A DNA stretch of 60,504 bases, counting the filler, from Streblomastix strix (taxonomy: Eukaryota): NCBI GenBank assembly GCA_008636045.1. It is 2 parts of 2 records of this genome, joined end to end, with 100 filler letters (N's around TTAATTAATTAA, not from the genome) between each part and the next. Parts side by side here need not be neighbours in the genome. Positions count along the whole stretch, not along the records: positions 30,340 to 60,504 come from SNRW01000094.1; 1 more part is not named here. One strand, given 5' to 3'. The position numbers and the translations under genes were made by a program. This document shows positions 30,240-60,504 of this stretch, in pieces. Below the pieces are notes generated by a model that was not told where the DNA came from, searched no databases, and saw only the letters and a list, made by a program, of their open reading frames with translations. Every line of letters starts with the position of its first letter. Positions within the stretch are counted from its first letter, which is position 1.

Positions 30240-30339
30240 NNNNNNNNNNNNNNNNNNNNNNNNNNNNNNNNNNNNNNNNNNNNTTAATTAATTAANNNNN
30301 NNNNNNNNNNNNNNNNNNNNNNNNNNNNNNNNNNNNNNN
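30240..30339. other. Scaffold gap containing an artificial TTAATTAATTAA linker
   Basis: N44-TTAATTAATTAA-N44; the 12-mer gives standard-code stops in all six frames, typical of contig-joining linkers. Confidence 0.85.
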
Positions 30340-34184: not shown

Positions 34185-36619
34185 AGAAATAATATTATTA
34201 TTTAATTTTTATTATAAATATTTTTAAAAATTATTTCAGATACAATGATTTGAAAATATGGAATTTTCGGCGGAAAGCGTCATAGAAAACAAATATTTTT
34301 AATTTTTCAGTTTTTTCCATCGCATTTATATTAATTAATATCTTTTATGATTATTTTTTTTATATCTATTTAATAATATTTTAAATTAATAAATATTAAA
34401 ATATAAACAAAAATTTTTTACAAAAAATCGATTTTAATTTATTTTTACAGTCAGGCGATGTTTTTCATTATTCGTTAGCATTTTGGTTAAATTCAAATGT
34501 TTAATTTTGCTAAGACATTACAATACTCATCGAATTTCGGTTTTACTTCATAATATAAACCCTTTTTACAAAAATTTTTGACACAAAACTAAGATAATTC
34601 GCTGATACGAGCGGAATTTCGCAGATCTACAATTTGCTCAATAACTTCCCAGATATTTCGTTTTTTTATATTTAACTATCAATATTTTTATTATTGGCAT
34701 AATTACATAAGATACATATTAAAATTATAACAATTTTACAACCAATACACTTGAACAAACATTCAAAAATTTTGAATATTTTAACTTGCAAATTTTAATA
34801 GTGCCAAACTGCAATTGCTGTTCAAACTATGAATGAATGCCAATTTTATAAGTTGACATTATTTTATATTAATACTTATCAGAATTATTACTTTTTTATC
34901 TTTCAGAATCCAAAATTATGTTTGTTTTGACCGTCCTGGCAACCTTTTAGCTTTGCAAGGTTTGTAGCCATTCACTTTTGAAAGATTGTATTAATATAAA
35001 ACACTTTTTATCTACAGACATGTTCAAAATTGGAACGATGCGGATTGGCGTTAGATGAAATTTTAATAAATTATGCTATTTTCTGCAATGAATCTCGGTA
35101 ATTCCTTCATTCTCCACTCAATCTTCTTCAGTCGATTAATTCTCCTCTACATGTCGAAAGAAAATGAAATAGTAAAGGGAAAAGTCCTTGACAATGGCTA
35201 ATTCTTACCCCGTTTTTAAATCTATTCGTTCGCCTAAACAAATATTCAAATTTAAAAATCAATAAAAATGTTATTAAAAATTAATTAAACTTTTATTTAT
35301 TATATGTCCTGAAACGCTGAAGTGTTTGGAATTTTGTGCAGAGCAACAACTCTTCTATCAATTTTGCTTTATTCATTCGGTTAATGAGCCAGAAAGAACG
35401 TTCCTGGAAAGTATTTATCAAAAATCAGACGAATAAAATTTTCAATTAGATCTTCATATTATTTGACTTATTCTGAGTCTAACTAAATTTGGGTATTTTA
35501 TTTAGCTGTCTTTATTTTTAATTCCTAGAAAGGCATTTAAATTTTCCCCGAAAAAAATTATTAGTTTTTTCTACAGTTTTTTACGAACAAATTGTAATTA
35601 TTTACAATTTAAATGAAAATAAATATTTTAAAATTTGTTTATTTTTCTTTTTACATTTAAAAAATTAAATTATAAAAAATTTTAAATAAATACTTAAATA
35701 TAGATAAAACAAAATTTAATTTTAATTAAATATTTAGTTAAATTAAAATATTGTTGTAATTATCATAATAATTATTTAAGATTTTTTTCAATTTATCCTA
35801 AATGTAATGTTTCTTTAAATTAAATTTAAGTATTAGCCCTTTTAGTATAAATCTTTTCTATTCGAAGGTATTCAGAAATTTAGAATAAATTGAATTAATT
35901 TAAGAGAGGCTAATGAGAAATGCTAATGTTTAATAAACTGTGTTTCGCAGCACGTAGGATTGTTTATTTGTTTTGATTTTTGGATTAGAAATATAAAATA
36001 ATTAAATACATTGGTATATTAAATTAATTTTGAAGCAGTGCATACAAATACGATGATTAGCGATTTTCGTAAAAAAAAATGTTTTATCAAAAACTTTAAT
36101 AAAAACCCTCATTGGAGGCTGCTGCCACAACTCATAACTCAAGCACAGCTGTGACATTACCAATTCATACTTTAGAAGTGATTTGACATTCCCCAATGCT
36201 TGCCAATATTGACTATTGCGGGATTTGAACGCATCCACTGAAGAGGTAGTTTCGGATGGCAGCACGATACGCTTCAACCCTAGCAATAAAAGTAAGGAAA
36301 AAAATCTAATTTAAATAAAATAAATTATTTTAAGTATTACTTCGTATATATCATGTTTTGAAATCATAAACAATTAATATTTCTTTTTAATTTTTTGAAG
36401 TGATTATTATTAATAATTATATCTAAAATTAATATAATAATAAATTTTATTATTCATTGATGAAAAAGTGTTCAAATTTGATAAAATAAAATTATTGGAC
36501 TTCATAAAATTTAAATTTTTTATTTTAAAAGTAATTCAACATCAATAACTTAAAGGAATAGTTTGAAGATAAATCTATTTCTTAATGGTATAAGATTTAT
36601 CTTGATAATTTTTAAAAGT

Positions 36620-37170
36620 ATCATGTAGAATGAATAAAGTAGAACGTAAAAACTTAAACTAATCGGAAGGTTTAATAGGAACCATAAAGAATTAAAAATT
36701 TTATCAGAAGTAAAGTTAAGGATTAAGCTGAGATAGTGAAAGAAATTAAATTGAAACCATTAAAAAATATTATTAACCATATTTTCCTCCTGTGAATGGA
36801 CGCTGGGATTTTGATATTGTATTTATATTACATCTATCACTTAAAAAAATATTTTATATATTTATTTCGCATTAATATTACCATCATATGTTTAGTAATA
36901 TTTCCAAAGAAAGATAAATCAGCAAGTGGTCTATTAAAGTGCATACTATAACTTAATTCTTAATAGATTGTTATAAATATAAGATCTTATGGTGAATCTG
37001 CATTAGGAAGTAAGTAGATTAAAAATTTCATAAATGATATTAATATAAATTACTTATACAAAATTCATCTCCATACATTAATAAAAATAGAGAAGTAGAT
37101 TCGGTTGTTTGAACAATAAGATAAGCGTTAAATATAAATAATTAATTACATGTTAATAATGAAATCTTTC
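36620..37170 (+). pseudogene. Retroviral-type (rve/DDE) integrase, Polinton-like, decayed
   Basis: KKYY.PYFPPVNGRWDFDIVF...YLFRINI..LVIFPKKDKSAS...IRSYGESALGSK...SSPYINKNREVDSVV*TIRQAL follows the D..D..E integrase layout; stops and frameshifts present. Confidence 0.7.
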
Positions 37171-37174
37171 ATCA

Positions 37175-38940
37175 TAAAAATTTAAAATTTAAAGTAAAAT
37201 TTCTTGATATTTTAATTTATTTTTCTCCAATGAAATTAAGAAAAGCAGCAAAAGATTTTAGAGATGATTAAATAGGTATAAATTGTGTGTTTTCTTATAA
37301 AGGCTTTCAATTATGAAAATTTTAATGATCTGATTAATAAACTGGAACCTATTATAAAAGAAAATTTCAACTCATCATTAAAGAAATCAAAACCAAGTAA
37401 AAAATTATTATTAAATTTTCCTTGAAGATTTAATAAATAAGAATTAGGAAAATAATAACGTATAAGATACATATATTATGATTAAACCATAAAGGACTCT
37501 AATTAGCTTACAATTTAAATATAAAATTGATATGTTTGTTTTCATGATTATGGCAGCGTGCTCTAATGCTATGAAATATGCTAATGCTTATGAGGATTTT
37601 GATATTAATGGAGTTTATCCTAATTTTGAAGATAATTCATAAAAATTTTATTTAACTGAGAACTATTGGTAAAATAAAGTGAAAAGATATCAATCGTAAG
37701 ATAATCATTAAAGAAGAGATACAACAAAAAATGTATAAGATAGTGATTACGAATATTTCAAACAATTATTCAAAGATTCTAATTGCAAAATATGTGGATG
37801 TAAATTTACATGCAATAATAAACCAACACTTGACAGAATCGACAAATATAAAAGGTCATTCAAAAGATAACGTTCAACCTTGTTTTTTATATTGTAATTG
37901 CTTTTGTTCAAATATAGATAAAAAAATAAGTTAATTGTTCATTTAATTACGTAAATATTGCATAATAAGAAGTTTGCCAACTAATCTAACAGATATTGAT
38001 GTATATCATCTAATCAAGAAATGGATCCCAGGTGGATTATCAAAAGTAATACATCGAATTAATAGATCAAGAATTGATTTTATAAAAAGGTTATAATATA
38101 TTATAGGTAACAAAAAGGTTACAGTTTTGACAACTGATCATCGAATTACTCATGTTGTTGGTGTTGATTTTAATTCCTTGTATCCTAGTGTTATGTCATC
38201 AGAGCCGCATAAATTTATAAAATATACTGGTGGAAAAATGTATATGTGTGGATCATAAACAGGTAAGATAATGGGTGACAATGATCATTCAAAATAAACT
38301 ATACTACGAATAATTAATAGCAATAAGAGATTTACAGCTGATGGTCAATTATTCATTGCAGAAATCAAAGGTCATATTTAAGAGGATTACATTAACGATT
38401 ACATTAATTTCCTACCAATATTAAAGAATTTTGAATCAACAACTGAAAAAAAGGTACTTTCAGTTGTTCAATGTACAATCATATGAAAGATAATAAGATT
38501 AGTACTGATCAAAAATAAAGAAAGTCAACTAATCTATCATCAACGATGGGAGAATATATGGCATTTAGTTCATACTGTTTATGGTTCTTATTTGATGAAT
38601 ATTAATATATTATAAATGGTAAGAAGCAAATAGATTTGCCCAATAAACATGATAAATTTTATTCATTTTTTAAGGAATTTACTAAAAACAGAATTGAAGC
38701 GAAATTAGATCAGAATAATTGATAAGAATAATTCTTCTAGATATTAATGAATATTACTTATGGAAGTGAAAAAACGAATAATGAAAAATATCATAAAGTT
38801 AGAATGATTGATCAAAAACAAGCTGAAATAGCAGCCAATTCTATTGAATATATAAACTAACAAAAGCTAACGAAAGATAATTATGATATATAATTGAATC
38901 CTAAATATCAATATTGCAGTAATCTTTTGCAAATAGAGTT
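37175..38940 (+). pseudogene. Protein-primed family B DNA polymerase fragment
   Basis: KVKFLD...KAAKDF; CKICGCKF..KPTLDRID..KGHSKDNVQPC..YCN; WIPGGLS; VVGVDFNSLYPSVMSS (motif A); degenerate motif B MNITYG; multiple frameshifts. Confidence 0.88.
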
Positions 38941-38989
38941 TTTAAAATTAAACTATTAATAATTGATTAATTTAGATAAAGTTCGATAA

Positions 38990-39270
38990 TAAGATGTACA
39001 AATAAATATATATAATATTTTCATCGTATAATTATCTTAGATCAGTTTCTCCAAGATTAACACCTAAGTAAATTACATGGGTTAATATCCTTAATATTTT
39101 AAACAAATAAGTAAGTCATTAAATTATAAAGAAAATAGTGTTTTTTGTGTGGATTGAATCATAAAATAATTGTGTTACAGTTTTAGATAATTATTAACTG
39201 AATCGTTATTTAGTTGCAATAAATTTAACATTATCAAATAGCATTAATGTGCTATTAATTTAAATTTTCT
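38990..39270 (-). pseudogene. Packaging ATPase C-terminal fragment
   Basis: Homologous to 56605-56850 (…CCAAGATTAAC(A/G)CCTAAG(T/C)AAATTACATGGGTTAATATCCT…). Confidence 0.75.
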
Positions 39271-40177
39271 AATATATGTATTTTCATTAATTTAATGTTC
39301 GCATTTTAGTAAATCTTGCAGCTAAATCCATTGTTAAAAAAGTCATAATTCCAACAAACATCAATTCAATTCCAAGATTCATTAAATATATTTAATGCTT
39401 CATCACTATTTTAACTAATTTTCCATTGATTCAATACTGGTCCTCTAACTTTGGTATTAGTGTATGTTAAATATATTGATGATTCATTCAAATTAGTTTC
39501 TATTCAAAAATCTTTATTAAAATTGGATTTCAGACGGTCATTTGGATTAATTTATAGCTTATTTGACATAATTTCGCTGCATCTGATGTTATGATTAATA
39601 GAAATTTAAGTTCCATTAGGTATTGATTAAACTGTATCTTATGATAAAGTCTCGGTGATTCTTGTAGGAGAATAAGTGCATTAACCTGTAACCACATTCT
39701 TAATTCAATAGACTGAATCAAACCTAATATATGCAAAGTACTCTGCAGTTTTACTTATACCAGAATGGGTACGAAATAGTTAAATTTGAACCAACAGATC
39801 TATATCCTTCTCTTATATTATCAATAATTTGAATATTGAAGATAAAGCTAATTTCTACGGATATCAAGATACAATAGAATAATATAAAACCTTTCATATT
39901 TTCATTTTAACAATGATATAATTATTTGGTTTAAACACAGATTTTTATTATTTAAAATGGTACAAACTAAATTTTATGTAATTAAATTAAAATTGTTTAA
40001 ATTATTCTAAAATTTATTTATTATTCAAGAAATTTGGTTGAAAATATACTTATAAATATTGACATTGTAGTGACTGATGCAAATTAATGCTAAATAAAGT
40101 CACAAAAAAAGACACAAAAAATAACTAATTAATGTCAAGCATTATTTTTAATTAAAATTGGAATATTTGATTAAAAA

Positions 40178-43100
40178 TCATGTTGCTTCTTTAACTTCTT
40201 AAATTTTTTCTTTAATCCTCTAGCTAATGCGGAATTGCAAAAGTTGTTTCAAATTAAATTAGTATATTTTAATGTTCTCCAATTATTTCAATTACTATTT
40301 AAACTTTTTATCTTTTATAATTTAAGTTTGAATAGAATCTATTAACTTATTTATTCTTTACTCAGGAGTATCTTTTCTATTACTTTTATCGTCAGAAAGT
40401 CCTTTATCAACAAGCTAATTTATATTAAAAGATTATAAAATTTCATTCTCTGTCGATTACAGCTTTATTTCATCCTATTTATGGGCATTTAATCTCTTTA
40501 CAGCTAAGTTAATCTTTTTTATTTCTGTTTCTCTAGATGCATTTTCTACTTCATCAACTGAATAATTGAGTTTTTAAACATACCTATTTGATTCCAATTA
40601 GATTGCATCAAATGTAAGTAGTGGCACGAATGGCAAATATTTTGCTGGATTAGAGTCAATATAAGAAGTAGGACTTATAGATGTCTATGAAATCAATGAA
40701 TTATGAGTTGTTGGAAGTTAATTAATGAATGGATCTTAATTAAATCTTTCAGATGGAGAAGATAATCTGACAAGAAATACAGATCCTTTGGTCTGTTAAC
40801 TATATGTATCTGAAGAGAAGATTGTAGCAACTTTCCCATTATGCATTGGAAAGTAGAAGCCTTGTTTTGAATCTTCATGAGCTCTTACAACTACGTCAAT
40901 TCCATTCGCTCGAACATATCTATCAGTAGTTTCTTAACAAAATGGTGGTCTTCCTTGAATAATATTTTCATAATCACTTGGATCTCCCCATGTTGTAAAT
41001 TTTAATATTGCTCGGTTACGCGTCCAAACTTCATTACATTCGAATCCTAATTATTCAGAAATTTAATATTGATCCTCTGGTGGTAATGATGTGCACTCAT
41101 CCTCGGCGCTAGCAACTGGCATTATGGGTGTAATACCACCATGATTGAGTTGAATACGTCTTGAATGTATTATTGGATAAAGATTTTAGAAATTATGCGT
41201 ATTTGTTTAATCTAAAGTCTGAGTTTAATTCTCATGAATATGTGAACGTTAGCTCTTTGGAATTTCTTATGTTTTATGATTATAAACAATCTGATTTGAA
41301 ATGTGATAAAGAAGTGTGACTGTACATGAAATTGGCATACATGTGAATAATTTAATAAATTTATGTGTAAATTAATGCTTTAAGATTTTTATATTTTTAA
41401 TCTCATCAGATTTCGGGTTTTGAATAAATAATTTTCTTGTTTTTTTATCAAATATTGTGTGGATTCGAAGGTTGAATGAATCACAAAATTTTCTTGTTCC
41501 AGCTGATTCATGATTACCTCTTATCAAAAAGATACGATCTGGAAAGGCAAGTTTGTAGGCAATAATAAGAATCACGCATTCGAGAGAATGTATTCCTCGA
41601 TCAATATAATCTCCTAAGAAGACAACTTTGCCTCTTGATGGATCATTTCGAAGAAGGACATCATCAACAATATCAAGTACCTTCAGAAGAGCGTAGAAGT
41701 TGCCATGTATATCACCAACAATCAGAAGACCTTGTTTATTCCTCAATTCAATATCATCTATTAATTCTTTTTAATCAATATTTTCTTTTTCATTTGGTTT
41801 TTATTCTTATTTTATCTATGAACCAAAATGAACATCAATATCAATATGTTAGCATTATTTCTCAACAATTTCATAATATTAAGCTGCATTATCAACAAAT
41901 ATAGTCAAATCCTCTGTTTTAAAAATATCCAAAAATTTTCTAGGATCTTTACTTAATAATTATCTTATTTCATTTCTAAATCTAACAACTTCATTATAGC
42001 TGATTACTCCTTCGGTTTCAATCTCATTTTCTTTTCCTAATTATCGATCTTTATTCATCTTTTCACGATTTTCTATAATTTTCTTAAATTAAGCTTTAAA
42101 ATCTGAAGAAAATTGTGGAAGTTTGATTATTGGTGTATTATTTGTAGGTTAAGTATTTGGAAAACAGAATTTCGTGAGTGATTTGAATCTTTGAAGAGCA
42201 AATACAGGATATCTTGGATCAAACATTTGATTATTTTATCCAAAAGAAGCAGATGTTTCTGAACATGAGTAGAATGATCTTCCTTTTCGATGATAATTAT
42301 CCCAAGCTGCTCCTTAGAGAATGAATATTGGTTTTGGATATTCATGTCTATCTTGTATAAATTTAAGCAATTTTCCATAAGGATTAATTTAAATTTATTA
42401 TTTAGTAGGAATCACTGGAATAAAATCTAGATTCACATTTGCTATGCTTAATGGGATTAATGATTAAATTTATTTTTTTTTAATTGATAAATTTTTAATT
42501 TAATTTGTGGCTTAAATTAATTATTACTAGGAAATTGCTGATTAATCGTTATTATCAACTTTCAATTATTCTTCATTATCAATTTCATCTTTAGATTTCT
42601 ATTATTCAATTGTTGAAATATTAGTTTCAAAGATATCATCAAGTTATTTTCTAGTTATCATTTTTGCACGAGTTGGAAAATTGCGATTATGACCTCGATG
42701 TGAATGAACAACAAACATTCTCTTCCAAACATTTACATTTCCTACAATGCCACATTTATGATTACAAGGAACAAGAGGTGCATGTGGTGCTGAGAAAGAT
42801 TATAGTACTCTTGGAAAAGGAGTTAGATTTGCATTATCTGGCTGAATTTAAGATGCTTGAATTCGTCTTGTTCCACTTTCCCATAATCCTTTCATCAGTG
42901 TTCGCATTCCTAATAATTCTGGGTTGCATTTCCCAACGAAAAATCTAAGATTCTTTTACTAATCATCTTCTGGATTCTTCTCTAAATTCCTTGGCTTTCT
43001 AAAATTACTTTCATTTCTTTCTTTTTCTTATTATTCATTCAATTTGGGGAATTTGCCCCAACGACGACTCCACATTCCACCTCCTCCAAATATTGTTGGA

Positions 43101-46100
43101 TAATCATCATCAACTCTATTCAACATAAGACCATCATTACTTTATTTACCTTTCTATTTTTATTTTTAATTCTCTTTTTATTCAAAAATTAGGTTTTATC
43201 CAATATCTTCAAAACGATTCTATTTCCATATTACATTCAAGGTCACAAATGTTGTATCAAGTTCTTCTTCCATCTATTCAATAACCCTGAATACTCGTTA
43301 TTTCATTCGGAATGAAGGAGTAAGAGGATGAAAACGAGGTCTGTTGATATTTTACTTAACTGATTATATGATTGATTATTCTTCAACATCTTTATTTCTT
43401 CTTTCAAATGAATTTATTGAATCTAAATCATCAAATACAATTCCATCTTCTTCATCATCGTTATCTTTTCCACAAAATTGAAGTTAATTATTTAAATTCC
43501 CATCTTTATTATCACTTCTATTTATTTTAATATCTTCAATTGTGAGATCGAAATTCAAGATTCGTACTAATGCTCGGCTCAGTGCATTTTGCACATAATA
43601 AAATATGACATTAAGATTTTGATCAAGTTATTTTTAATCAGATAAAAGGCGCATATGTGTATTCAGATCATTTCTATTTTTTTATTTAATTAATCCTAAT
43701 TATATTTTTACCCATTTCTATATATGATTTTCAAATTACTTGCGATTGTTTTACCATTCTTCTTATAATTACTTTCCAATTCCAATTTCGCCAATGTGTG
43801 TCAACCAAATAAAGTAAAGCTCGTCAGGGAAGAATAGCTGATAAATATCAAGTAAAATATCATTCATCCTTGAATTATTATTTATTATTTCATTATCATT
43901 TTATGCATTCATATTTTGAATCACATTTTCTTTTTCAATTCTGAGAATTAATTTGAATATTTTCCTCAATTAGTAAATATCTCGAATTTTCTTCTTTTAT
44001 TCCTTATTCAATATTTTAATTAATGGTTGTTATGTTTAAATTTAAGGTGGATAAAGTAACTAACTATTTCTACTTTATTATTAACTTTATTAATTTGGTG
44101 ATATTGATTATGAAATTTAATCACAAACTTATTATTTCTCAGTTTAATAAAATATAGTATTATTTTTCAATTATTGTGATAATTATGAAGATTTTTATTA
44201 TATAATTTATGTTCTTTAATTATTTTCATTATTCACACTTTGAACTCTTTCCATTCATAAATCTTTATCCAACCAGAATAAAATCTCTTCAACTTCAGCA
44301 AGATCATTAGTTCCATTTTAATTTTGATTCAATTCAAATTATCTATTCAAATCAGAAGAAATTGAAAAATCTCTAAATAAAAATGTGCTTAAAGAGAGTT
44401 TGAGCGAAAGTTTAGATAAGATAACAGACGAAAGTAAAGTTGTACGATATTAATTTGATTATTTATATTATTATTGTAATTAATTGCGATTATTAAACAT
44501 ATGATATATATTCTATTTTATATCTTTAGAATTCTCTGATGGAATGTCTTCATCATAATTTTCTCTTCTTTATTCAGTATAATTTTCTCTTCTTTATTCA
44601 GTATAATTTTCTCTTCTTTATTCATCATAATTTTCTCTTATTTAATCATCATAATTATCTCTTCCTTATTCATCTTAATTTTCTCTTATTTAATCATCAT
44701 AATTATCTCTTCCTTATTCATCTTAATTTTCTCTTATTTAATCATCATAATTTTCTCTTCCTTATTCATTATAATTTTCTCTTTCTTATTCATTATAATT
44801 TTCATTTTAATTTTCTTCATCATAATTTTCTCTTCCTTATTCATTATAATTTTCACTAGCATTTTCTTCTTTAATCTTATTTAATTGATCTAATTTTTCT
44901 TTAATCTTCAAAGTTAATTTCTTAATATGTTCAATAATATTATTCTTTGATTATTCCAATAATTCAATACTTTCTCCAGCATGTGCAATACTCATATGAA
45001 TTGAAGTCTATATCATTGCTCCTCCACTTCCAGGGCCTCCACCTGTTCCTTCCCATTCAGCTATACCACAAAGACGTTTATATCTTTCTTATTCTAATTA
45101 ACAAAGCTTTTATTCTTTATTCATCAGAAGATTGTTAGTATTTTATGAAGTTGATGTAGAAGATTAAGATTATTGATTAAGTTAAGATTATGATGAATTT
45201 TGTTATTAATTATTATTTCCTCTATTCCTGTTTAATATTCGACCTCCAATAACCTTCTTCTTCATATCACACCACATTTCCCACACACTTGTATATGGTT
45301 TTAATCCTTCAGCATAATTGTTATATAAATTATTATTAAACGTTCTTTTCATTTAATTTCTTCTTTTTATCCTTTTTTCTTGATTATCATTTTCATTCAT
45401 TTCTTATTTTGTTTCATATTCATATTCATCTTCTTCAGGTTGATAAACAGGATCAAAATATGGTCCTTATTCAGCATCATTTGATTTAAGAAAATATCGA
45501 TTAATTAATAAGCATATTTGGCCATCTTCATTATGAGAACAAACTCGACCTGCTCAATTTAAATAACTATTAAATTCCTGAGAGTTTTCTATATCACTAC
45601 GATATATATCATGTGATGGATATGCAGTAAGTGACAAGAGTCGCACTGCATTAATAAATGGCATCTCTTTTGGTATTATTAATTGATTCATTAGTTTTCT
45701 ACCTTAAGTCATTATAATGCACATTTCTCCTTTCATATCAAAATCATCTTCATTTTGATTTTATTAATTTTCAGTCTTTTATTAATTAGTGGTATCAAAA
45801 ACATGGATCTAACCTGGAACACAGAATATTAGAAGAGGAATTCTATTATCGTTTGGAAATGGCTCAATATTTATAATTTCTCGTTTATCAATACAGTTCT
45901 TTTCTTTAGGAATATTTGCTTCACTATTATATAAAGCTTATAATAATACAAGTGCATTCCACGAATCACAACAAAAAAGTGGATCATTAACGAGTGTGTT
46001 ATATTTATCTCCTATTTCAGCATTTAAGCTGTATTTAATTGGCTTTTATTAAGATCTGAATTGAGTGTATGATTCTGGAGCAAGACTTCTTAGTGGTGGG

Positions 46101-47332: not shown

Positions 47333-47904
47333 ATAATCTAAATTGAAAATTTTTAGATTCATATAAAACAGTAAAATAATTTAAAATTAATGATATTTAA
47401 AATTATTCCAATGCGTAAAATAGGTTTGAATGATAATTGGCGGCGATCGCTTTAGGTATAATACTACTGATTTTATCTTCATTATATATGAAATTTATGT
47501 AATACATACAAATTATATTACTTTTGAATGTTACAAATCTGACGGACAGGAAGTACGGATTTTTCCGCTCTGAAATTTTAATTCTGATTTCTCCGTAAGC
47601 CATAAAGGTCTTTTAAATGTATAGCATTTGATTTGAAAATGTTTAAAAATGATTAGTTTTTAAATTCTCTTATTATATTAATAGATGGAAGATTTTTCAC
47701 GTTTTAATGAAAATTATCATTAATTAGAGTCTTTCAAATAAGTTAAATTTTTAATAATGATTCAAAAATAAAAATAATAAATTAAAATTGTTCAAAATAA
47801 AAAAGATAAAATAATAAAGATTATAAATGAAACGGAATTGAAATGAATTAAACCTTTTCTATTTAATTGAATCATATTATTCATAAAATTCATTTTAATT
47901 CAAT

Positions 47905-49240
47905 TATTCATTTCCATTTTTCCCCCTTTTAAGTGCATTGGATTTTTCAACATGTTATGAAGTGAATTAAACTAGTCTTTCGAGCTTTGTCACAGTGAAG
48001 GAAGAAAATTCTTTCCAGGTGAAAAATTGAGTGAATTAAATAAAGAATTAATGAATAAATTTTAAATAAACAATAATTTTAAATATTAATGATTAAGAAT
48101 GAGAAACACATATTAATCAAATTATTAATAATATATTCATTAATTATATTTAATTATTAATCTTATTTACAAACGAACCTAGAATCATATTTCGGAAAGA
48201 ATTCTAATCACAAAGTTTGGTTGCTCAATATCATCAACGTAAAATACAACTTTGCGTGGATTTGATGTCATGTCTACAATAGCACTAATTCTTTAACCTT
48301 CAGAATATAACTCATTATATATTCTATTACTTGTAATGTGGTAAAGGTGTTCACTAACAATATAATATAATTAAAATAAAAATATAAAAAGTAAAAAAAT
48401 GAAAAAATATTATAAAATTATAAAGAAATTAAAGAGTTAAATATTATAATAGTAATTTGGACACATTATATAAATTTTAATTTTAAAGTAATTTATAAAT
48501 TTAAATAATTCGCACATATTCCAATATATAACAGTCATTTTATCATTTTATTAAATCGCATTAGATGAGGCGTTGTATGAACAATAAAAATAATAATTAA
48601 TAGAAAATGAATTTATTTAATGTCAAATATTAACATTATTTAATATATAAAATATTCCATTGCAAATAGGAATTAAATAAAACAATATATTAAATAAATA
48701 CTTTTGTCATGATAAGACATGCTTCCAGCAGCAAAAGAACAAGAGGCATCTGCAATTCCAATACCTACAAAAATAATATAGTGGAATGAAATAAAGAATA
48801 TAAATATTATAATTATCAATAATTCTTTATATTCACGTTCATTAATTCTTATTAATATTAATATACTTTAATATCCTCCGGAATTCCCAAAAATAATTTC
48901 GATTTTTACTATTCCTTCACTAATAATAGGATCTATTGCAATTGCGCATCTTTCATTTTTATCAGAGTGAATGAATTACCGGTTCTTATCCCTAATTCAA
49001 TCCTCCAATATATTATAATTTTTTATTTAGTTATGCATTATCTTCTTCAAGTTCTTCTTCTTCTTAGTCTTATTCCTTTTCATTTTAAATATCTTACTAT
49101 TGAACATAAATTTAAGGAGCAAAATCAATTTATTAATCTAAGTTTTGAGAATAAGGATTTAAATCTTCTTATGGTTTGACTTAGTATTGATTACAACCTC
49201 CAAATAATTTCATTCCTTCATCATCATTATCCATAACATC
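47905..49240 (-). pseudogene. SPRY/B30.2-like domain gene, decayed paralogue of 8748-10025
   Basis: HSDKNERCAIAIDPIISEGIVKIEIIF / IGIADASCSF / GQRISAIVDMTSNPRKVVFYVDDIEQPNFVIRILSEI*F; in-frame TGA; boundaries approximate. Confidence 0.7.
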
Positions 49241-49329
49241 ATGATCAAGAGTAGATTCTACAATTTTATTTGGTGCTTATTATGATGGTTAATCTAATCG
49301 ATCATTGATGTAAAAAATGTAATCATTAT

Positions 49330-49890
49330 TTGATTATTATTATGATTATATTTGTTGTGGTACCAAAAACTATTGCACCATTTATTACGTTCAAATATTA
49401 TCATTCACTAATCCCATAGGGTAAAAAGATCTATATATTCTTTCTTTTCTTACCTTTCCTTTTAATCCTTATATTCCAGCATCAGCTTTATAAACTGAAA
49501 TACTAGTATTGTTTTGGTGTATCTACCATATTAAATCTGAATAATCTTAGTATCTTATACTTCCTTGAGCTATCTTAAGTTTTTCCATATTCTTTAAAAC
49601 TTATAGAACTTTTGCTATATTTGATCAATAAACAGTAAGTCCTAAATGTATAAAAGGTTTCATTAAAAACATACATTCTTTTATTTTAGTAGCAGTTGGT
49701 TTATTTTTAGGTCGTTCTAAGGGTCGTTTTGGATCAACAGATTTAGTTTTTTTACCATCACGTAATAAAATTTTAATTAAAGTTAATTATTCTTTAGCAA
49801 TAAACAAATGGAAACAATATAACCGCATTGCAATTGTCCAGCTAAGAAATACAATCCAATCTGAGATATATTGATAATAGCTTCAAGCAT
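49330..49890 (-). pseudogene. Degenerate element ORF(s): hydrophobic N-terminus and AT-hook-like PKRPLERPK
   Basis: MLEAIINISQIGLYFLAG... then frameshifted ...DGKKTKSVDPKRPLERPKNKPT...; stops present. Confidence 0.3.
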
Positions 49891-49941
49891 TTTATTGATA
49901 ACTATTTTATTGAATTGATATTATTTTTATTAATTAAAAAT

Positions 49942-51651
49942 ATGACTAAAATAAATTGTGGAGAATTTATGATTTACTCAGCATTTTAGAGCTAACTGAT
50001 ATCACGTGCAATAAAAACTGATCTTGAGATAGAATTGAGATTTATACTAAGATAATACAATAAAAGACTCAAGATGGATTTATTAAAAGAAATTTTATTA
50101 ATAGCTTCAGAGAACAGCTAATCAGCAGTTATGAAATTGATATAGTATTTAAATGAAAGAGAGTGAGGTTATATTATAATGAAATGACTAATATTGGCTT
50201 ACAAATTATCAATTCAGATTCAGATAAGGATTATGTAACATGGCAAACGACTATCCTTACCGGTAATTAAAGTATTTAAGTTAATAGTATCATTAACATT
50301 CAAATTAATTTAACATATAATTTGAACAATGATTACATAGAAATATAGTATAATATTGAATTTACAGAATAGTGGAAAATCTATTTCTAACAATTGATTG
50401 AAGAGGATCGGTTTCATTGTTAATTATTTGATAGATTACCACCAATTAAGATTAGTTTGAATATTGCAATTAATAATGCTTATAATAGTGACTAAACGAT
50501 ACAGGGTTATAAATATACTCCATAATTAATGTTCTTATCACTAACATAATATACTGAGTTTACAGATACAATTGAGAAATATTTTAGAACATAACCAACT
50601 TTGAATAGTGGAGCAATATGCTTTAATAATTTAACTAATGAGCTTGTATAAAATTATAAAATAATCTGTACTCATTAAACTAGAATTATGGATAAGATTT
50701 AATGAATTCAACAATCAATTACATTAATCTTAGAATCGATGCATTTCTTTATCATTACTGGATCTTATGTACCTCAGTTAATGAATTATATAGAATGATT
50801 ATATTAGTACGATTATATTGCCCTACATCAAAAATTATTATACATCTATTGAGCCGAAATATTTTACATAAGGTAGTGGAATATTTATAAGATACCTATT
50901 CGGTAAGTAACTTGATATAAATGCTAATGGATCAGTTACTTTATCAGATTTTTAACCAATTAATGTATAGCAATTAACAAAGCAATAAATCATTAATAAT
51001 ATTAATACATTTCCAGTTAGAATTATCAATTCATTACCAGCTTTTAGTATTGTTGAATTGTAAAATATTTATACTGCAGTTGGATGAACAAATTATTATG
51101 GATAATTCATTCCATAGGTTGTAACTTATTATTGCTAATAAAATAACTTATATTGATTCGCTAATCGTATATTTTTATCTCCAAATCTATATGTATAATT
51201 AGTTGATGGATAAGATCTTTATGATGGATAGAACGAAAATGGAGCCAATTAATTAGTAAATTTATCATCAGCTATTAAATAAATTGATCTTGAAGTATGG
51301 TTTTATTAAACTAAACATGATAATGAAAGCATAAAAGTTGATCTTCCAATATTCTGTCCATACATCGGGAATTTTCTAGAGTATCCATAAATGTTAATAA
51401 TTTGCGTAACTAATTAATTATAAGGAATAACTCTATCATCTACAGGCGGTAATGGTTTCTCAAATGTATGTTTCAAATAGAACTTGGTTGACGCACCAGT
51501 ATTATGGGGATAGAATATGATGAGACAGTAATGTCTTGTAGGATAGAACAAATCGTTAGTGTTTACATTATATGATAACTTTGGAAGAAAGATACCAATG
51601 CAATATATGGATATGTATAATAATTTACATATCGAGGTATAATTTTAATGA
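49942..51651 (+). pseudogene. Putative minor capsid (penton-like) protein with large insertion, frameshifted
   Basis: Beta-rich N/T/I composition; C-terminus SLVFTLYDNFGRKIPMQYMDMYNNLHIEVQFQ* resembles the terminal strands (hxhxhxD..Gx.h...hxhxF) of Polinton pentons; its TGA overlaps the pPolB ATG (ATGA). Confidence 0.55.
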
Positions 51652-54600
51652 GCAGTCTAAATAAATTATTTTTATTTTAAACTAACTTTCTTACATAAAG
51701 AAAGCAGAGCTAATCAAACTACTCAAAATCAACAACAAAAACGTCAATGAATCATTAAAAGTAAATTAATTTAAAGAATAACTCAATGAATACTTAGACA
51801 AAATTAATTATAAGATACGAGGAAGAAATAACTACAATGATTTGAAGACCCATCTAAAATAGATACATTAATACAATCAGTAAATTATCAAAGCAAAAGA
51901 TCTGGATTAACATTTCATGAAGAACCAATATGATTAAGATTTATAGGAATATCGTAGAGAATAATAGTAACAATAAGCGGATATTTACTATGATGATTTG
52001 TAAGAATAGAATCGATAATTACATTAAGATTTATCTCATTATCACTCAAATTAATATGAATAAGATTTATAAGAATATCGTAGAGAATAATAGTAGTAAG
52101 AAACTAATGATTTTTGGACTGATATGATCATCAAATAACAGGAATAAGCATAAAGAATTATGGAAGAAGAATAAGAAGCTGTAATCTAAGCAAACGAATA
52201 ATATGAAGCGTATCTATAATACTAAATAACTACTTAATAAAATAAAGAAATTGCTAATCTAATTAAATAGTTTAGTGGAAAAAAAGTTAGAGAAATAAAT
52301 AATTATGCAGGCACTCTATTATATTTTCTTCCTGAGAATATGGAAGAATTTGTTGCTACAGTTTATAAAGCAAGATAAGGATTTGATCGTGAACGAACAG
52401 TAAATTAAAGATAGGAAAATGGATAACTTAGCGAATTACACTATAATAATGTGATCTAATCATTAATCGATATTGAAGAATTTGTTGATAAAGTTTATGA
52501 GGAATAGCACCATTAAGCATTCAAGATTCAATTCAATTTTGGAGTCATTTACGAAGAATATAAGTCTGATTAGAATGATTAAGTTTAAGTTGATTTTGGA
52601 TATATATTACCTAGAGATACTCGCATATAAGAACATTCTCCTAAAGTTATATAAAATTAAGATGATATTGAAGAGTATTAGCAATACATTAAAGCTGAGA
52701 TAATTAATATGTAGAATTTTATATTAGATAGCACAAAATAACGATTCATTGCTATCTATTCAATGCTAATCAAAATATTTAATCTTTAGCCTCAAATTGT
52801 GGGTGCTAGTATGAAAGAATTAATCGATATTCATTGTAAATGTCGCAAAAATGTTATATATAAAAACACAGGAAATAATAATAATTGCTATATGGAAGCA
52901 ATAGCAAAAGCATTACATCCTGATTCGAAAGAGAAGCGTTATAAAAGTGAATCAATTATAAGCATTAGTAGAGAATATTTAGTTTAAGTATTAGAGCTAC
53001 CATTCGATTCAAAGAGTAGAAAAATTACTGATTTATTGAAAACATTTGTAGGATTAGATATAACTAAATACGCTAATATAGTATCATAAAAGTTCAAAAT
53101 TTACTAAGATATTTACTATTACGATAATGAACATAAGAACTATTATAGAGGACTATAGACAATGTATTAATAGGATACTGAAGGTCTGATAATCGAAGAT
53201 TCTGAATCCAAAGAATTAAGCTAAGCTCAAGATTAAAATGAAAAATAAGAAAGCATAAAAACAATTGATTTATTAGTTGTCGAATCTGAATGGGAAGGAA
53301 AGAAGATTTCTCATGCTTTCGCAATAGCTAATAAATAAGCATTAACTGGATTGAAATTTTGCCCACATTGTAACTCAAAAGCGTTTGATCCAAAAGATAA
53401 AAATTACAAAAGAAACTAAGAGAAACACACTATTAAATGTGAAAATAATGAATGAAAAATAAGAAATTGAATTTGAAAGTGAAATTTGTTGATATGTTAA
53501 CGTGTCTTTAACCTATGGAACTAAAGTAAGCAGCTAAAGATTTTGGTGATGGATACGATGATAAAAAAGGCTTATTTCCCTATTAAGCTTTCAATACTGA
53601 TAACGTTAATGAAGTACTAAGTAAATCAGAACCATTTACGATGGAAGATTTCAATTCATCATTAAAGAATACTAAAATTAGTTATAAGGATTATTAAATT
53701 TATCTAGAAGATGCAAAACGATTTAAAAATAGATGGGACTATTTACAATTCTATAATGAATAAGATACATATATAAGGATCAAACCACTAATAACTCTAA
53801 TTAGCTTACAATTTAAATATAAGATTGATATGTTTAGTTTCATGATAATGGCTGCATGCTCTAATGCTATCAAATAAGCTAAAGCCTATGAAGATTTTGA
53901 CATTAATGGAGTATTTCCTAATTTTGAAGATTTATCATAGAAATTTTATTTAACAGAGAACTATTGGTAGAGTAAAGTGCGGGGATATCAAGTCTAAGAT
54001 AAACATTATAGAAGAGATACATCAAATAACGTTTAAGATAAGGATTTCGATTACTTCAAAAAATTATTTAAAGATTCTAATTGCAGCATTTGTGGATGTA
54101 AATTCACTTTTGCTAATAAACCAACGTTAGATAGAATTGAAAATTCAAAGAGTCACTCCATAGATAATGTTTAGCCCTGTATTTTATATTGCAATTACTT
54201 TTGTTCAAATAAAGACAAAAATATAGGTAAATTGTTCATATAATTATGTAAATATTGTATGATAAGATGTTTACCAACTAACCTTACAGATATTGATGTA
54301 TATCATTTAATCAGAAAGTGGATCACAGGTGGATTATCAAATGTAATGCATAGTGTTAATGTATCAGGAATTGATTATATGAAACGAATCTAATATGATA
54401 AAGTAAATAAAAAAGTTACAGTTTTAACAACTAATCATAGAATAACTCATGTAGTTGGTGTTGATTTTAATTCCTTGTATCCTAGTGTTATGTCATCAGA
54501 GCAACATAAATTTATTAAGTACACTGGAGGGAAAATGTATATGTGTGGATCATAAACAGGTAAGATTGAGGGTAATAGTGAACATTCAAAATAAACTATA

Positions 54601-55830
54601 CTACGAATAATTAATAGCTATAAGAGATTTACATAAGAAGGAAGATTATTCATTGCAGAAATCAAAGGCCATATTTAAGAGGATTACATTAACGATTTCA
54701 TTAACTTCCCACCTATTCTAAGGAATTATGAATTTTCAACAGATGAAAGAACTATCGGTAGTTATATGTATTGTCACATGAAAGACAATACGATTAAGAC
54801 AGATCAAAAATAAAGAAAGCTACTTAATTTATTATCAACGATGGGAGAATTCATGGCATTTAGCTCAGACTATTTATAGTTCTTAATTTATGATTGTCAT
54901 TTTATTACAGATGATGTAAAATAGATAGTGCTATTCAATAAACATGATTAATTCAATTCATTTATTAAGGAATTTATAAAAAACAGAATTGAAGCAAAAT
55001 TAGATGAGAATAAGGGATAAGAATAATTCTTTAAGATAGTTATGAATAGTTCATATTGAAGTGAAAGAATGAACACTGTGAAATATCATAAAGTTAAAAT
55101 GATGAATAGGAAGTAAACTGAAAGAGCAATTAGATCTAATGCCTTCATGGACGAACAAAAAATATCTGAAGATAACTATATCATATAAATGAATCCAGAG
55201 AATTGCAGTTGTAAAACTCCTTTATAAGTTGCATTCTTTGTATTAGATAACGCTAAATATCGGTATCTAAACTTCATATATAACTTCATGTATAAATGCT
55301 TAGATGTGGATAGGATACATTTTGTCGAAGGAGATACTGATTCAGCTTATTGGGGTATTAGTGGAAATCCAAATGAAGATTTTACTTAGTAATTTAATGC
55401 TGTTATAAGCGATCGAGATTTTTATAATAAAAATGCTAAGTATTTCTTCCCTAGGATTAGAGGAGATGTTTATGATGAGAAAAAGATATTAGGTCTTTCA
55501 ATCGAAAGACAAGGAATTGCAATGTATGCTCTTGCTCCTAAAAATTATATGATAAAAACTAACAATTGCGCTAATTCAAAAATAAAATTAAAAGGAGTTA
55601 ATTGTAAGACTAATAAGATAATTAAAGAATAGATAGTCGATTGTATTAATGAAGGTAAGATAACAAAATGCACAAACAATCGTTTAGGCTAGAAGAATCA
55701 TTAGATGAGTTAATTATCTATTATAAAAAATGGAATCACAGGAATTCATACAAAAATGATAGTGCTAGAGAATCAATCATGCTGCCCATATATATTCAGT
55801 TTGACAGCAAAAGATTATTCATATAAATGA
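51648..55830 (+). pseudogene. Protein-primed DNA polymerase B (terminal-protein-like region, OTU-like protease, Zn finger, HNH insert, polymerase), internally deleted
   Basis: GNNNNCYMEAIAKALHP (52871-52921), SHAFAIAN..FCPHCN..HTIKC, KGLFPYQAF, YLQFYNEQDT, WITGGLSNV, VGVDFNSLYPS, KIVMNSSY*S, EGDTDS, APKNY, KLKGV; TGA 55828-55830; no ExoI/ExoII segment visible at the ~53460 junction. Confidence 0.92.
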
Positions 55831-55872
55831 AACCAAAGGTTTGAGCTATGCTAATCAAAATTAAATTATTTT

Positions 55873-56454
55873 TCAATATTCTATATCATGTTATCTTTTT
55901 AATTTATTCAAACACATTTTATGTTTGTTATTATTTGTACCATAAACACATATATAATGTACCTGATTTTTTGTCTTCAATAGGGTGAAGTTATCGATAT
56001 TACAATCCATTATAGAGATTGAAATTGCCATTATCAAAATATAGAAATTCAAATTAATATTGTCCATATTAATTAACCGTAATAGCTGCATCGGATAATT
56101 GATCAATATAGTTATATGTTATATCTCCGTAGCATGATTTATTTTTAGTATTTTATGAGATAAAACACCATCTAAGATTAGTTAAATCATTATTTAATTT
56201 GTTTCGATCTTTATGATCTATATCAGGTAAATTATCAGGATTAGGTAAGAATTATTTAGCTAAAACACGATGGTATTTAAATTTCTTTCTACTAAATACA
56301 ATATTCATATATCCATTAGATTTATCTAGTGTTATTGCTGGTATATATTAATCTCTTTTTCTTCTAATCTTATGAGTTTCTTCAGATAGTATCTCATAAT
56401 CAGCGTTTACAGTAACGGTACCCATTGATTCACTTCACTGTTTTCTTCTGCCAT
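55873..56454 (-). pseudogene. HNH homing-type endonuclease
   Basis: NGYMNIVF.KKKFKYHRVLAKQFLPNPDNLPDIDHKDRNKLNNDLTNLRWC (HNH_3 pattern); frameshifts near both ends. Confidence 0.88.
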
Positions 56455-56476
56455 TTTTATGTACAGATGAAAATAA

Positions 56477-57493
56477 TCATTTATTTTTGATAATCTCAAA
56501 TTTTCCCATCCACTTATTCAGTATGATAAATTCATATTTCTTTAATGTGTTGTACAGTAATTGGAATTCATCAAAATCTAAATTTTATATGGTATTTTCA
56601 TCGTACACTTATCTTAAATCACTTTCTCCAAGATTAACGCCTAAGCAAATTACATGGGTTAATATCCTAGCTATCTTAAACAAATAAGTTGGTCGTTAAA
56701 CAATAAAGAAGATAGTATTTTTTGAATGATGTGAATCACTAACGAGATGCGTTATTGTTTTAGATAGTTATGAACTGAATCGTTAGATATCTGCATTAGA
56801 TCCAATATCATCGACGAGCATTAATGTATGGAGTAATTAAGCTTTTTCTAATATAGGTATTTTCATCACCTTTACATCAACTTAATCGTTATTGACTATT
56901 TTGAATTTCTTTTTGTAACTAACGTTTTGAGTTAGTGCAGGGATATCGAATCTCAATATCTTGGTTGGTTAACTATATGTATTAATGGTTTCGATTACAT
57001 TTTATTTGAATAGTTCAGCAATTCGATTAAGATAATCATTAGGTTTTTCATTCTTTTTTATCTCATTATTTTATAATATCTATTCTTCCATTCGCTTAAT
57101 GAAATCGCTAGTGTATGATTATTTTTACTCATTCATTTTGTACCAAGTGTACATTTCCTTTGTGGAAAACTTTATCTCATCAAATTCAGGTAGAAATATC
57201 ATTGCTTCTCCATAAGTTACATTCGTTAGTTAAATGTTCTTACTATTTAGATTTAATGCCATAGTTTCATCAGCACCATAATTCGAGAAGTATAATATGA
57301 ATGGATCAATGATTTTCTTATATATCACAACTAGCTTACACATTAATGTTGTTTTACCACTTCCAACTGCTCCAACAATATAATGATTTCCATTAATCAG
57401 GAACAATGAATTCTTCGTTAATGGCGTAGTTTTATATTCGTTCAATAGATCTTAGTTAGTAAATGTTATATCTTATAATTCTTATAAAGTCAT
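56477..57493 (-). CDS. A32/FtsK-like DNA packaging ATPase, 338 aa
   Basis: Uninterrupted code-6 ORF; Walker A YIVGAVGSGKTT, Walker B LMLVDD, DSHH (RH expected), FFIVQ, ARIL. Confidence 0.88.
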
Positions 57494-57554
57494 TTTCAAA
57501 AATATTAAAACGAATCCGTGTTAATGTAACATACTTAGTTTGATCATTAACATA

Positions 57555-57893
57555 ATGAACTACATGTTCTATGGTGTTAATTTTGTAACATCAATTATAT
57601 CTGTATCAATTCCTGATAAATTAATGGATACAGATAATGTAGTAAAAACTTTATGGAGTTATTTTGATATAGTTTTGGTTTCATTAAATATAACGATTTA
57701 CATTATACAATTCTTTTACAAAAGAAAAATGGACAAGAATTAGCCAAGAATCCATTGGTCATAGCTATCAGTAGAATAAATTGAAACGTTTTTGAATGAA
57801 GCAATAACTAGTAAAGATTTGGAATTGGCAACTCATTGGAGATATATCCTTTACCTTAAAATGTTAAATTAGCCTTAAAAATAAATTGTTTGA
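57555..57893 (+). CDS. Small putative membrane protein, 112 aa
   Basis: Open ORF with hydrophobic segment LWSYFDIVLVSLNITIYIIQFFY followed by KRK. Confidence 0.55.
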
Positions 57894-57903
57894 GTTAAAT
57901 AAA

Positions 57904-58152
57904 ATGGAGTAACTTTACTAATTAGCGACAAACATTGGCTTAAAGTATTATGCAACAGATTATGAGATTTTCAAAATATTTGAAACATTAATTGAGATAA
58001 ATGATCTATCAATTGAAGATAAACAATTGTATCAATAATTCAAATAACATTATTGTTTTATTGAACCAATCCAAGATTAAATTGAAGATATAATCAAATA
58101 CATATAATATATCAACAATCTTATTATTTTAAATTAAGTTAATAGTAATTGA
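57904..58152 (+). CDS. Hypothetical element protein, 82 aa
   Basis: MEQLYQLATNIGLKYYATDYEIFKIFETL...; starts 10 nt after the previous stop. Confidence 0.5.
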
Positions 58153-58570
58153 CAAAGTTACGGTATTACTCATCATTCACAAACTAATTGTAAATCTATT
58201 TTTCTTCTTCACTAGCTTCAGAGATAATGCACTTCTTTATTTGTTACGGTTAATTGTTTAGATCTAATGACTTTTTAATTAATAGATGTTTATTTTTGAA
58301 GTACTTACTCTATTCATTAAATAACTTGTTTTTATAATCCTCTTCATCAACCATTTTCTTTATATTTTATAATTATTGCTATTGATTATTGATTGTTTTA
58401 TTGATTTTCATTAATTCTTAGAGTAATGGATGAATTGATTCTATTACATCATTCTTTAACAAATTTTATAATACTTCATTTGTAACTTTAATTGTATCGT
58501 TATCTTAAAAGTGTGATTTAACTAATTCATTGAATAATTGTTTGATCGGTTATGTTACAGCTTTTTCCAT
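58112..58570 (-). CDS. Hypothetical coiled-coil element protein, 152 aa
   Basis: MEKAVTQPIKQLFNELVKSHF...YQLNLKQQDC*; starts 20 nt after the fibre stop; convergent 41-nt overlap with 57904-58152. Confidence 0.5.
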
Positions 58571-58590
58571 TTATTTCAAAAATAAATTAA

Positions 58591-60175
58591 TCAAAAGGTT
58601 TGACCATTGAATGTTAATGTGTTTCCATCAGCTGATATTATTAATCCTTTATTTGATTGAAGAATTTAATCATCAACTATAATCCTTAATTCACCAGTTG
58701 GAGTATTTACTATGCACCACTAATTTATAATGTTTCACCTGTTGATAGGGGGAATACAACCCAGACAAATTTCATTATACTAACTATCAGCCTACTGTGA
58801 TATTCGTAGTCCATAATTATAATTGTTACCATTTGGATTGATTTAATCTGCACCACAAGTAACGCCTGCAAATGATGTAGTTTTACCAGCATTTTATATA
58901 TACCGTTAAGGTACTTAAACATTTGCATAAGTACCTGATAAAACAGTACAACGATGATTGATACATAAGTACTATCTGTTGGATGTATCAAAAATTAACT
59001 ATTTTTAAAAGTTTTTTTTACCAGTAATTGTTTAATCAATAGCAATACTAACATAATTATCATTTATCTTTTTTCTTGTTAAATAATCACCAGCTATCGA
59101 TTTTTCATCATCATCCCTTTTTCTAATTATTTCTTCTATAATTTGCAATGTTTTACCTGTTTTTGCAACATATTCAGTTGCTTACGCATCTCTATTAATA
59201 AACATTGTTGAAGTTAATGGTTCAACATATGTTAATTACTATGTATGAACATGATCATTTCTACAATAATCATAGCCAGTTCCATTAGTTGCAGCAGTAG
59301 CATTTACTGGAGGTACGTTTGTAGTAGTTGGATCAACATTAAAAGATTGTTAATGTGTAGCACTAGCAACTATATTAGATGAACTTGCAGTTCCAGTACC
59401 AGAATCTTTCAGGAGAACGTCATTATTTATATTTACATGATGAATGTGATCGAATCTAGCATAAGTATTAGCAACACCATCTTCACCTGTAGCAGTATCT
59501 TTTGCTGGTAAAATGGTAGAAACTTATAGAAGATGTTACTGATCTTCTCTAGCATATTCAGTATTTGTTTCCACTATACCTCCTTCAATAGATGCCTTTG
59601 GCGTTGCACCACATGCAGACGTTACTTAATCTGGAACAATATCTACACTATTATACCAAGCTGCATCAAACATCCAAACTGTCCCACTTTCAGTATTAAA
59701 TAAAAAATCACAATTAGCGGAATTAATTAAATTTTATATATCACTATTCAATAAATAATATCCTCGGAAATGTGCTTATCCTGTTAATTCCTAATTAATA
59801 GTATCAATTTCATTTTTTTGTATCAGTGATATCTTATTCAGTTGTTCCAATTGATTGTTATAATAAATTCACTTATTTAATAAACTAATTAATTTAAGCA
59901 ACAAAATCAAATTTAATCACATTCAAATTATTTATAGTTAGCAATCCATTAGGTTTTATTTTTAATGCAAAATCTGATGTCATTCCATCAACGATTTAAC
60001 TATTAGCTGCATAGACTAATGCATTGTTATAATCTATGAATAATTAGTATTCTTCATTTGATATCATTCCACCACTAGAATTACCTCGTTTCTAATATAG
60101 AATACGGTAAGCTATATCTTTAGTGATTAACTATCTAACTGTTCGGATTTACTATTACGATAGCGCGTTATTCAT
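58591..60175 (-). pseudogene. Phage tail-fibre-like virion fibre protein, frameshifted
   Basis: Repeats EYAREDQQH, TYARFDHIH, VASATHQQ, DYCRNDHVH, each after a G/T/A-rich linker; DQTITGKKTF; ends SADGNTLTFNGQTF*. Confidence 0.7.
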
Positions 60176-60194
60176 TTTAACAAATTAATATACA

Positions 60195-60404
60195 TCAATT
60201 ATTTTTATTTACAAGACGATCCATGGCACTTGCAAGATTAGCCCCTGCACCTAGTGCTCTTCCAATTCCAGGATGAATCATTCCAACCGGTCCTGAAATT
60301 GTTGTTGAAACTTTATGTAACTCTGACGCAACCTATTTTGTTACATTCTTCATTCCTGTTAATATTTTTGATCCAAAGTTACTAATTCCAGAGAAGAAAA
60401 CCAT
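60195..60404 (-). CDS. Small amphipathic protein resembling adenovirus pVI / adintovirus PX membrane-active peptide, 69 aa
   Basis: MVFFSGISNFGSKILTGMKNVTKQVASELHKVSTTISGPVGMIHPGIGRALGAGANLASAMDRLVNKNN*; FFSGISNFGS parallels the pVI lytic helix LWSGIKNFGS. Confidence 0.6.
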
Positions 60405-60504
60405 TTTTGATTAATAATAAATTTTATTATCTTAATCATCGCTTCGATAGGTTTAATTTTGCTTAAGAAAAAATATCGTCCAAATCTAGTGATTATCTTG
60501 GACG

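Follow-up and report, generated by a model that had tools for sequence, protein, structure and literature searches.

The window analysed here is a 60,504-nt stretch of AT-rich DNA (GC content 0.18-0.36) from the oxymonad Streblomastix strix, a protist of the termite gut. It contains at 49942-60404 what is in all likelihood a decayed, integrated Polinton/Maverick-like virus, hereafter the main copy. From left to right, this copy carries a 74-aa open reading frame (ORF), a penton-like gene, a gene for a protein-primed B-family DNA polymerase (pPolB), HNH endonuclease and packaging ATPase genes on the minus strand, three small ORFs, a fibre-like gene, and a gene for a 69-aa protein (Table 1). A preliminary description of this DNA had presented the region as a compact, intronless cluster. 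The genes were present and open in genetic code table 6, in which TAA and TAG (TAR) encode Gln; however, the cluster did not read through cleanly, and most of the long genes were pseudogenes. The membrane protein named in that description corresponds to the 112-aa ORF, whose single hydrophobic segment is borderline by the Kyte-Doolittle scale. The region 49942-51651, described as one penton-like gene, comprises two genes, the second of which is penton-like.

Table 1. Features of the element, of its older sister copy and of two host genes, in positions of the whole window.
Feature	Position	Strand	Basis
74-aa ORF, conserved, no function call	49942..50166	+	66% identity to P0038 residues 1-74; no PHROG match
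Predicted penton (minor capsid) gene, ~490 aa, pseudogene	50184..51651	+	Atlas match of sister P0048
Protein-primed B-family DNA polymerase, pseudogene	51648..55830	+	PF03175 and motifs
HNH endonuclease	55886..56425	-	PF13392 E=6.7e-8; PHROG HNH E=1.5e-19
A32/FtsK-type packaging ATPase, 338 aa, open	56477..57493	-	Pox_A32 via sister; Walker motifs
112-aa ORF, one borderline transmembrane segment	57555..57893	+	Kyte-Doolittle 19-residue maximum 1.70; no Pfam/PHROG match
Small ORF, ~82 aa	57904..58152	+	translation only
152-aa ORF	58112..58570	-	start matches tail of sister P0034; no significant family match
Predicted fibre-like gene, pseudogene	58591..60175	-	sister models
69-aa basic Gly-rich protein, candidate membrane-penetration protein	60195..60404	-	N-terminal amphipathic helix; 34 homologues
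Older, heavily deleted sister copy	36500..39900		79% nucleotide identity to main copy
Integrase-like remnant (in older copy)	~36.5-37.15 kb	+	motif resemblance
pPolB fragment of older copy	37164-38901	+	tblastn
ATPase fragment of older copy	39009-39287	-	tblastn
Fibre fragment of older copy	39387-39890	-	tblastn
Calcineurin-like phosphoesterase, host gene	40181-44254	-	PF00149; opens only in table 6
EF-hand protein, host gene	28308-29852	-	PF13499

Under the standard code (table 1), just 2 ORFs of at least 100 aa were found in the whole window and none inside the cluster, and the longest stop-free stretch in five large element genes was 31-73 aa. TGA ended 12/12 complete element ORF segments checked. 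TAR accounted for 67-100% of Gln codons in 13 element segments, compared with 67-85% in five host ORFs. The proposal that the genes are readable only with TAA/TAG as Gln was therefore upheld. The same applied to a conserved ATPase Gln that had been singled out: the codon of Q266 is TAA (56698-56696, minus strand), and the residue was Gln in 12/12 sequences of alignment A4, which holds distant near full-length ATPases of 19-28% identity taken from profile-search matches. These relatives are presumed, from their uninterrupted gene calls, to use the standard code. The remaining 16 TAR columns of the alignment were variable and uninformative, and the older in-window copy kept TAA at the equivalent Gln (39121). 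In the window ATPase, 17 of the 19 Gln codons were TAR. Because this protein is only ~5% from its nearest sisters, post-insertion drift cannot account for such usage; active ancestors probably already used TAR. Host-code usage is not new: NCBI gene models in table 6 already exist for element genes, and the accessible text of Bellas et al. 2023 (PMC10120064) states that integrated viruses of this oxymonad use the host table.

pPolB matched PF03175 (E=1.6e-5, just under the curated cut-off) and contained motifs A, B and C (DFNSLYPS at 54463, KIVMNSSY at 55033 and GDTDS at 55330). Cys/His motifs at 52877 and 53306 are predicted to be vOTU-like, a label that follows PMC11161782 by motif alone, and a Cys-rich nuclease-like insertion was located at 54082. 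An ATG/TGA overlap at 51648 couples the gene to the penton gene. The frame is broken by a likely early frameshift, a ~180-aa deletion near 53455 and a TGA at 55057. Sister protein P0035 retains the ~180 missing residues, which we take to carry the exonuclease I and II motifs. Sequencing runs X2 and X3 showed other sequence at the 53455 junction (loose contig ends before 53459). Comparison of pPolB with phage records gave no match, and a motif-pattern scan of viral contigs revealed no related locus.

The HNH gene is likely an optional insertion. One contig of run X1 skips 55745-56477, the HNH region; this evidence is weak, the short side being just 27 letters. For the ATPase, Pox_A32 (PF04665) scored above cut-off on sister P0003, which is 92% identical to the window protein. 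The latter has Walker A at 57373, Walker B at 56824, and the invariant K, DD and Q. Its Arg finger is His, vs Arg in 45/47 stored sequences showing the motif. A 408-aa version of the ORF was ruled out, since homologues begin at 57493. A PDB sequence search with the ATPase profile was blank or insignificant, and scans of viral contigs with the window ATPase and three distant relatives, and of metagenome contigs with two alignments, revealed no related locus. The polymerase, HNH and packaging ATPase assignments of the preliminary description were all confirmed.

The penton-like gene contains frameshifts near 50650 and 50820 and TGA codons at 51085 and 51154. P0048, which covers just the last 336 aa of a sister penton (C-terminal part), is 82-86% identical to the window gene and had an Atlas score of 0.96, a value that shuffled proteins reached ~1 time in 100. 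The matched clusters were Sputnik V18/19 (44% of members), DUF5901 (13%), and one whose commonest taxon is Parabasalia. A single jelly-roll penton is predicted with moderate confidence, the cluster families being based on under half of the members. That the ~490-aa gene encodes the major capsid protein (MCP) was ruled out, because Atlas indicates a penton, the MCP having been found as a separate gene.

The MCP gene was absent from the window, as had been claimed. A search for longer proteins with the terminal 69-aa ORF gave 34 fused gene models, 33 of which were inspected. One of them, P0103, runs on into ~540 aa that matched Sputnik-type MCP clusters (PF22031/PF21915) with an Atlas score of 0.93 and 192 shared features. 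In four models the small gene was preceded by additional sequence, which in three of them (P0089, P0100, P0106) was a P0103-type capsid on the opposite strand; the antisense scores were 154, 151 and 125, respectively, vs a shuffle maximum of 20-25 (8 shuffles each). The predicted MCP gene most likely lies head-to-head with the small gene, just past the window end. Residues 1-150 of P0106 represent a further protein beyond the capsid gene in that sister copy, with no match in the window; it is a candidate element gene.

The fibre-like gene encodes an N-terminal coiled part, His-x-His repeats and a variable C-terminus, and is broken by a frameshift near 59815 and a TGA at 58737. At least one His-x-His repeat was present where fused models continue into the fibre (29/33). 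No significant sequence match was found in PHROG or PDB, the sole signal being a weak tail-needle match of P0085. The 69-aa protein had a hydrophobic moment of 0.50-0.61 in six copies, a value reached by 1-16 of 500 shuffles; it had no match in Pfam at cut-off, PHROGs or PDB. The labels "pVI-like" and "fibre" given earlier to these two genes are thus supported by an amphipathic basic N-terminus and by His-x-His repeats, and for neither by a significant sequence match; "pVI-like" would be an analogy drawn from amphipathicity alone. That the amphipathic ORF is the C-terminal tail of the MCP was rejected: an ATG and a TGA of its own delimit it, and most sister models begin with it. In a literature search, no paper turned up that links polintons and protein VI to an amphipathic helix and a membrane.

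Judging from its sequence, the main copy is dead and cannot be active, in view of the pPolB deletion and stop, the penton frameshifts and stops, the broken fibre-like gene, and the loss of the ATPase Arg finger. Assembly error was rejected as the overall cause: short exact contigs match the copy in places and other copies differ at the breaks, although individual breaks may still stem from such an error. The rve integrase was absent from the main copy. It had been reported in the older copy at 36.6 kb, and what stood was a decayed, motif-level resemblance: the remnant at 36.7-37.1 kb presumably resembles an rve integrase by its motifs. This remnant is repeated and joined to the pPolB fragment, as one exact X1 contig (possibly from the same sample) spans 36605-37524. 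Between the two in-window pPolB copies, the ratio of nonsynonymous to synonymous substitution rates (dN/dS) was 0.28 (568 codons, table 6).

All 36 ATPase homologues found among 4,233 candidates were labelled Streblomastix strix (best 95%). A profile search of 1.84 billion representatives gave 42 proteins. Metagenomic ATPase families (P0121-P0147), on contigs up to 21.8 kb, were the nearest relatives outside S. strix. An unrooted tree was built from 34 nearly full-length sequences, to the exclusion of fused and short models; its 20 S. strix-labelled rows fell together on one side of a branch (95/97), and the branches among the remaining rows were long. These rows comprise three subfamilies, ~95, 66 and 56% identical to the window ATPase. 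The branch, its three subfamilies and the dN/dS value indicate long residence in the host. On 48500-60504, 16,009 contigs of run X1 were placed, in every identity band, 2,341 at ≥99% and 2,718 under 90% identity, and related pieces occurred in runs of two other studies. The summed X1 depth, which is no copy number, fell sharply left of ~50100. The main copy thus belongs to a multi-copy family with many divergent copies. The supplement of PMC10120064, in the part available, places 820 S. strix MCP hits in a single group, estimated there at ~11% of the genome, and a 2026 preprint, in its accessible part, leaves Metamonada elements ungrouped. No published gene map of the lineage was found, in literature coverage thin on subscription papers.

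Several features of the surrounding sequence were recorded. The window consists of two unrelated pieces joined by an N-linker at 30240-30339 (central TTAATTAATTAA), across which features are not to be read. Gene model P0080 matches the right piece (30,165 bases) at 100% over the aligned part and lies on a contig of equal length; position 60504 is most likely the contig end, at which the element is cut, and the sequence can most likely not be continued beyond it in this assembly. Immediately left of the element, a decayed minus-strand frame (48962-49940) is repeated in run X1, less than the core, and has no Pfam match. Possibly this frame is one of the element's outer genes; a protease or an integrase was ruled out, there being no match. 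Farther left, minus-strand fragments at 47800-48960, with no Pfam match, resemble a SPRY/B30.2-like repeated host family, and we take 30340-30720 (minus strand) to be the 5' part of a host gene resembling a legumain-type peptidase. An inverted repeat at 32220-33047 (arms of ~280 bases, 83-85%, spacer of 263 bases) resembles a foldback element or a miniature inverted-repeat transposable element. In the left piece, 1185-4922 holds three related inverted-repeat arms (1185-1350, 1979-2043, 4761-4922) enclosing minus-strand ORFs 2115-2720 and 3137-4399, neither with a Pfam match; this region is possibly another decayed mobile element. A 111-base unit is present in 3 tandem copies at 5964-6296 (91% identity). 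A 100-N gap within 22723-23076, with an exact 127-base duplication on both sides, is likely a scaffolding artefact.

Taken together, these findings argue strongly that the main copy is a decayed integrated member of a multi-copy Polinton/Maverick-like virus family in a TAR=Gln host, whose intact ancestors were likely protein-primed and likely had a double jelly-roll capsid. In an ancestor that was still intact, the intronless genes would be read by the RNA polymerase and the tRNA-Gln of the host, and pPolB would copy the linear genome from a terminal-protein primer freed by the vOTU-like domain. MCP and penton would then build an icosahedral shell, into which the A32 ATPase would package DNA. 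The His-x-His fibre may bind the host, the amphipathic protein may breach a membrane, and re-insertion of the genome would fall to an rve-type integrase. The lineage would have multiplied inside the recoded host until ~80-90% of its Gln codons were TAR, at which level its genes would truncate on standard-code ribosomes. The element works like a Polinton; strict membership hinges on integrase, protease and terminal inverted repeats (TIRs). It is probably a member of the known Metamonada Polinton/Polinton-like virus (PLV) group, possibly of an undescribed sublineage. The earlier proposal of a virion-forming lineage co-adapted to a recoded host was borne out by the capsid genes, the host code and the long residence; it was not for present-day virion formation, the copy being dead.

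A number of results weigh against this reconstruction. The longest penton model in the cluster has 336 of ~490 aa, and no full-length penton model was found. Neither the MCP nor the penton had a Pfam or PDB sequence match, and the AlphaFold predicted local distance difference test (pLDDT) was 33 for P0103 (single sequence) and 32 for penton alignment A5 (10 near-identical rows), which leaves language-model features as the sole basis of the jelly-roll calls. The fourth model tested for the antisense capsid, P0096, was negative, and in P0103 the MCP follows on the strand of the small gene, in contrast to the head-to-head arrangement of the other three. Copies are therefore rearranged or chimeric; amplification chimeras are common in single-cell data. 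TAR-CAR interchanges between the two pPolB copies were few (3/25 TAR, vs 0/34 TAY-CAY). The integrase remnant had no Pfam or PDB match, and no adenain/Ulp1-like cysteine protease was found in the window, in which the contig end truncates the element. No candidate TIR was present among the window repeats and no target-site duplication (TSD) was seen, the right end lying beyond the window. No full-length element was seen.

A competing explanation, to which we give somewhat less than even chances, is that a former virus has become a self-synthesising transposon whose spread, present or most recent, is purely intracellular, with capsid genes as relics and a code match due to AT-biased drift during vertical residence. 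In its favour, all long genes of the main copy save the ATPase are broken; against it, each of the three subfamilies has full-length packaging ATPase ORFs. The shortness of the penton models and the make-up of most sister models, which are spliced chimeras of fragments, also count in its favour, although breaks in such genes can be produced by short contigs and by gene callers, as stated in the accessible text of PMC10120064. A further point for it is that the TAR use of the element equals that of the host. Points against it are the conservation of the amphipathic gene and the fibre across 33 models and the wide variation of the fibre C-termini, as those of receptor-binding proteins would show.

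A bolder version of the virus hypothesis seems to us doubtful. It holds that the lineage is an undescribed Metamonada-type PLV sublineage, apart from the Trichomonas-like capsid cluster already counted in S. strix, and that it crossed once from standard-code hosts into the TAR=Gln oxymonad, where it diverged into three or more subfamilies. Its virions would still be made today and would enter by means of the 69-aa protein and of a His-x-His fibre whose tips are interchangeable. It is very improbable that the cluster is a transposon without a capsid, or a patchwork of nested repeats of unrelated origin, and that the capsid gene comes from another family: the MCP is linked only via spliced gene models on short contigs, in two orientations, and the second in-window copy is a mosaic, but the penton-pPolB, ATPase-fibre and small gene-fibre adjacencies recur in many independent models, penton and pPolB overlap by ATG/TGA, and the head-to-head MCP is common to three models.

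If the bolder version is true, the lineage would be a natural case in which the genetic code confines a virus to a single host clade, with the metagenomic relatives as the comparison. That S. strix has Polinton-like viruses in its altered code is already in print. What is new here is a map of one lineage's genes (penton, pPolB, HNH, ATPase, fibre, small amphipathic gene, head-to-head MCP), the evidence of selection under table 6, and the ATPase relatives at 19-28% identity; the map and these relatives could help place Metamonada elements. If intact copies still form particles, the system would test the genetic code as a host-range limit of a eukaryotic DNA virus.

The Metamonada PLVs of Bellas et al. 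2023, as given in the accessible parts of PMC10120064, share the host label and the TAR=Gln table with the window lineage. Their MCP has a Foldseek match to 3j26_A, of Sputnik type, and the MCP of the window lineage is also Sputnik-type by Atlas. Their S. strix hits fall in one cluster ~32% identical to the Trichomonas vaginalis MCP, whereas 0/10 distant ATPase matches of the window lineage were named Trichomonas. The P0103 accession was not among the supplement rows available, beyond which further S. strix rows may include the MCP of this lineage, and comparison with the printed representatives, by eye only, showed motif resemblance, yet P0103 looked distant. The window lineage may be a sublineage separate from that cluster.

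Adintoviruses and MELD viruses, according to the available text of PMC8502044, carry small membrane-active proteins (cupiennin-like, pX-like, protein VI-like) and fibre genes; an entry module is therefore already known in this virus class. Their hosts are animals, in contrast to the oxymonad host here, and the 69-aa protein is likened to theirs by analogy, without a sequence match. Among Polintons, the cysteine protease occurs in 74%, as reported in the accessible part of PMC4028283. The window element resembles Mavericks/Polintons (Polintoviricetes) in its pPolB with predicted vOTU motifs, its A32 ATPase, its predicted MCP and penton, and its chromosomal multi-copy state; it differs in that no cysteine protease, TIRs or TSD were found and in that its integrase is motif-level only. 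The ATPase of the lineage has a helical insertion, and no named Polinton was among its matches. Tetrahymena, the host of Tlr elements, also reads TAR as Gln. Like the window element, Tlr elements are integrated and encode capsid proteins, with MCP (predicted here from sister copies), penton and ATPase; they have no protease, and they carry a superfamily 1 helicase in place of a full pPolB (PMC4028283, in the text available).

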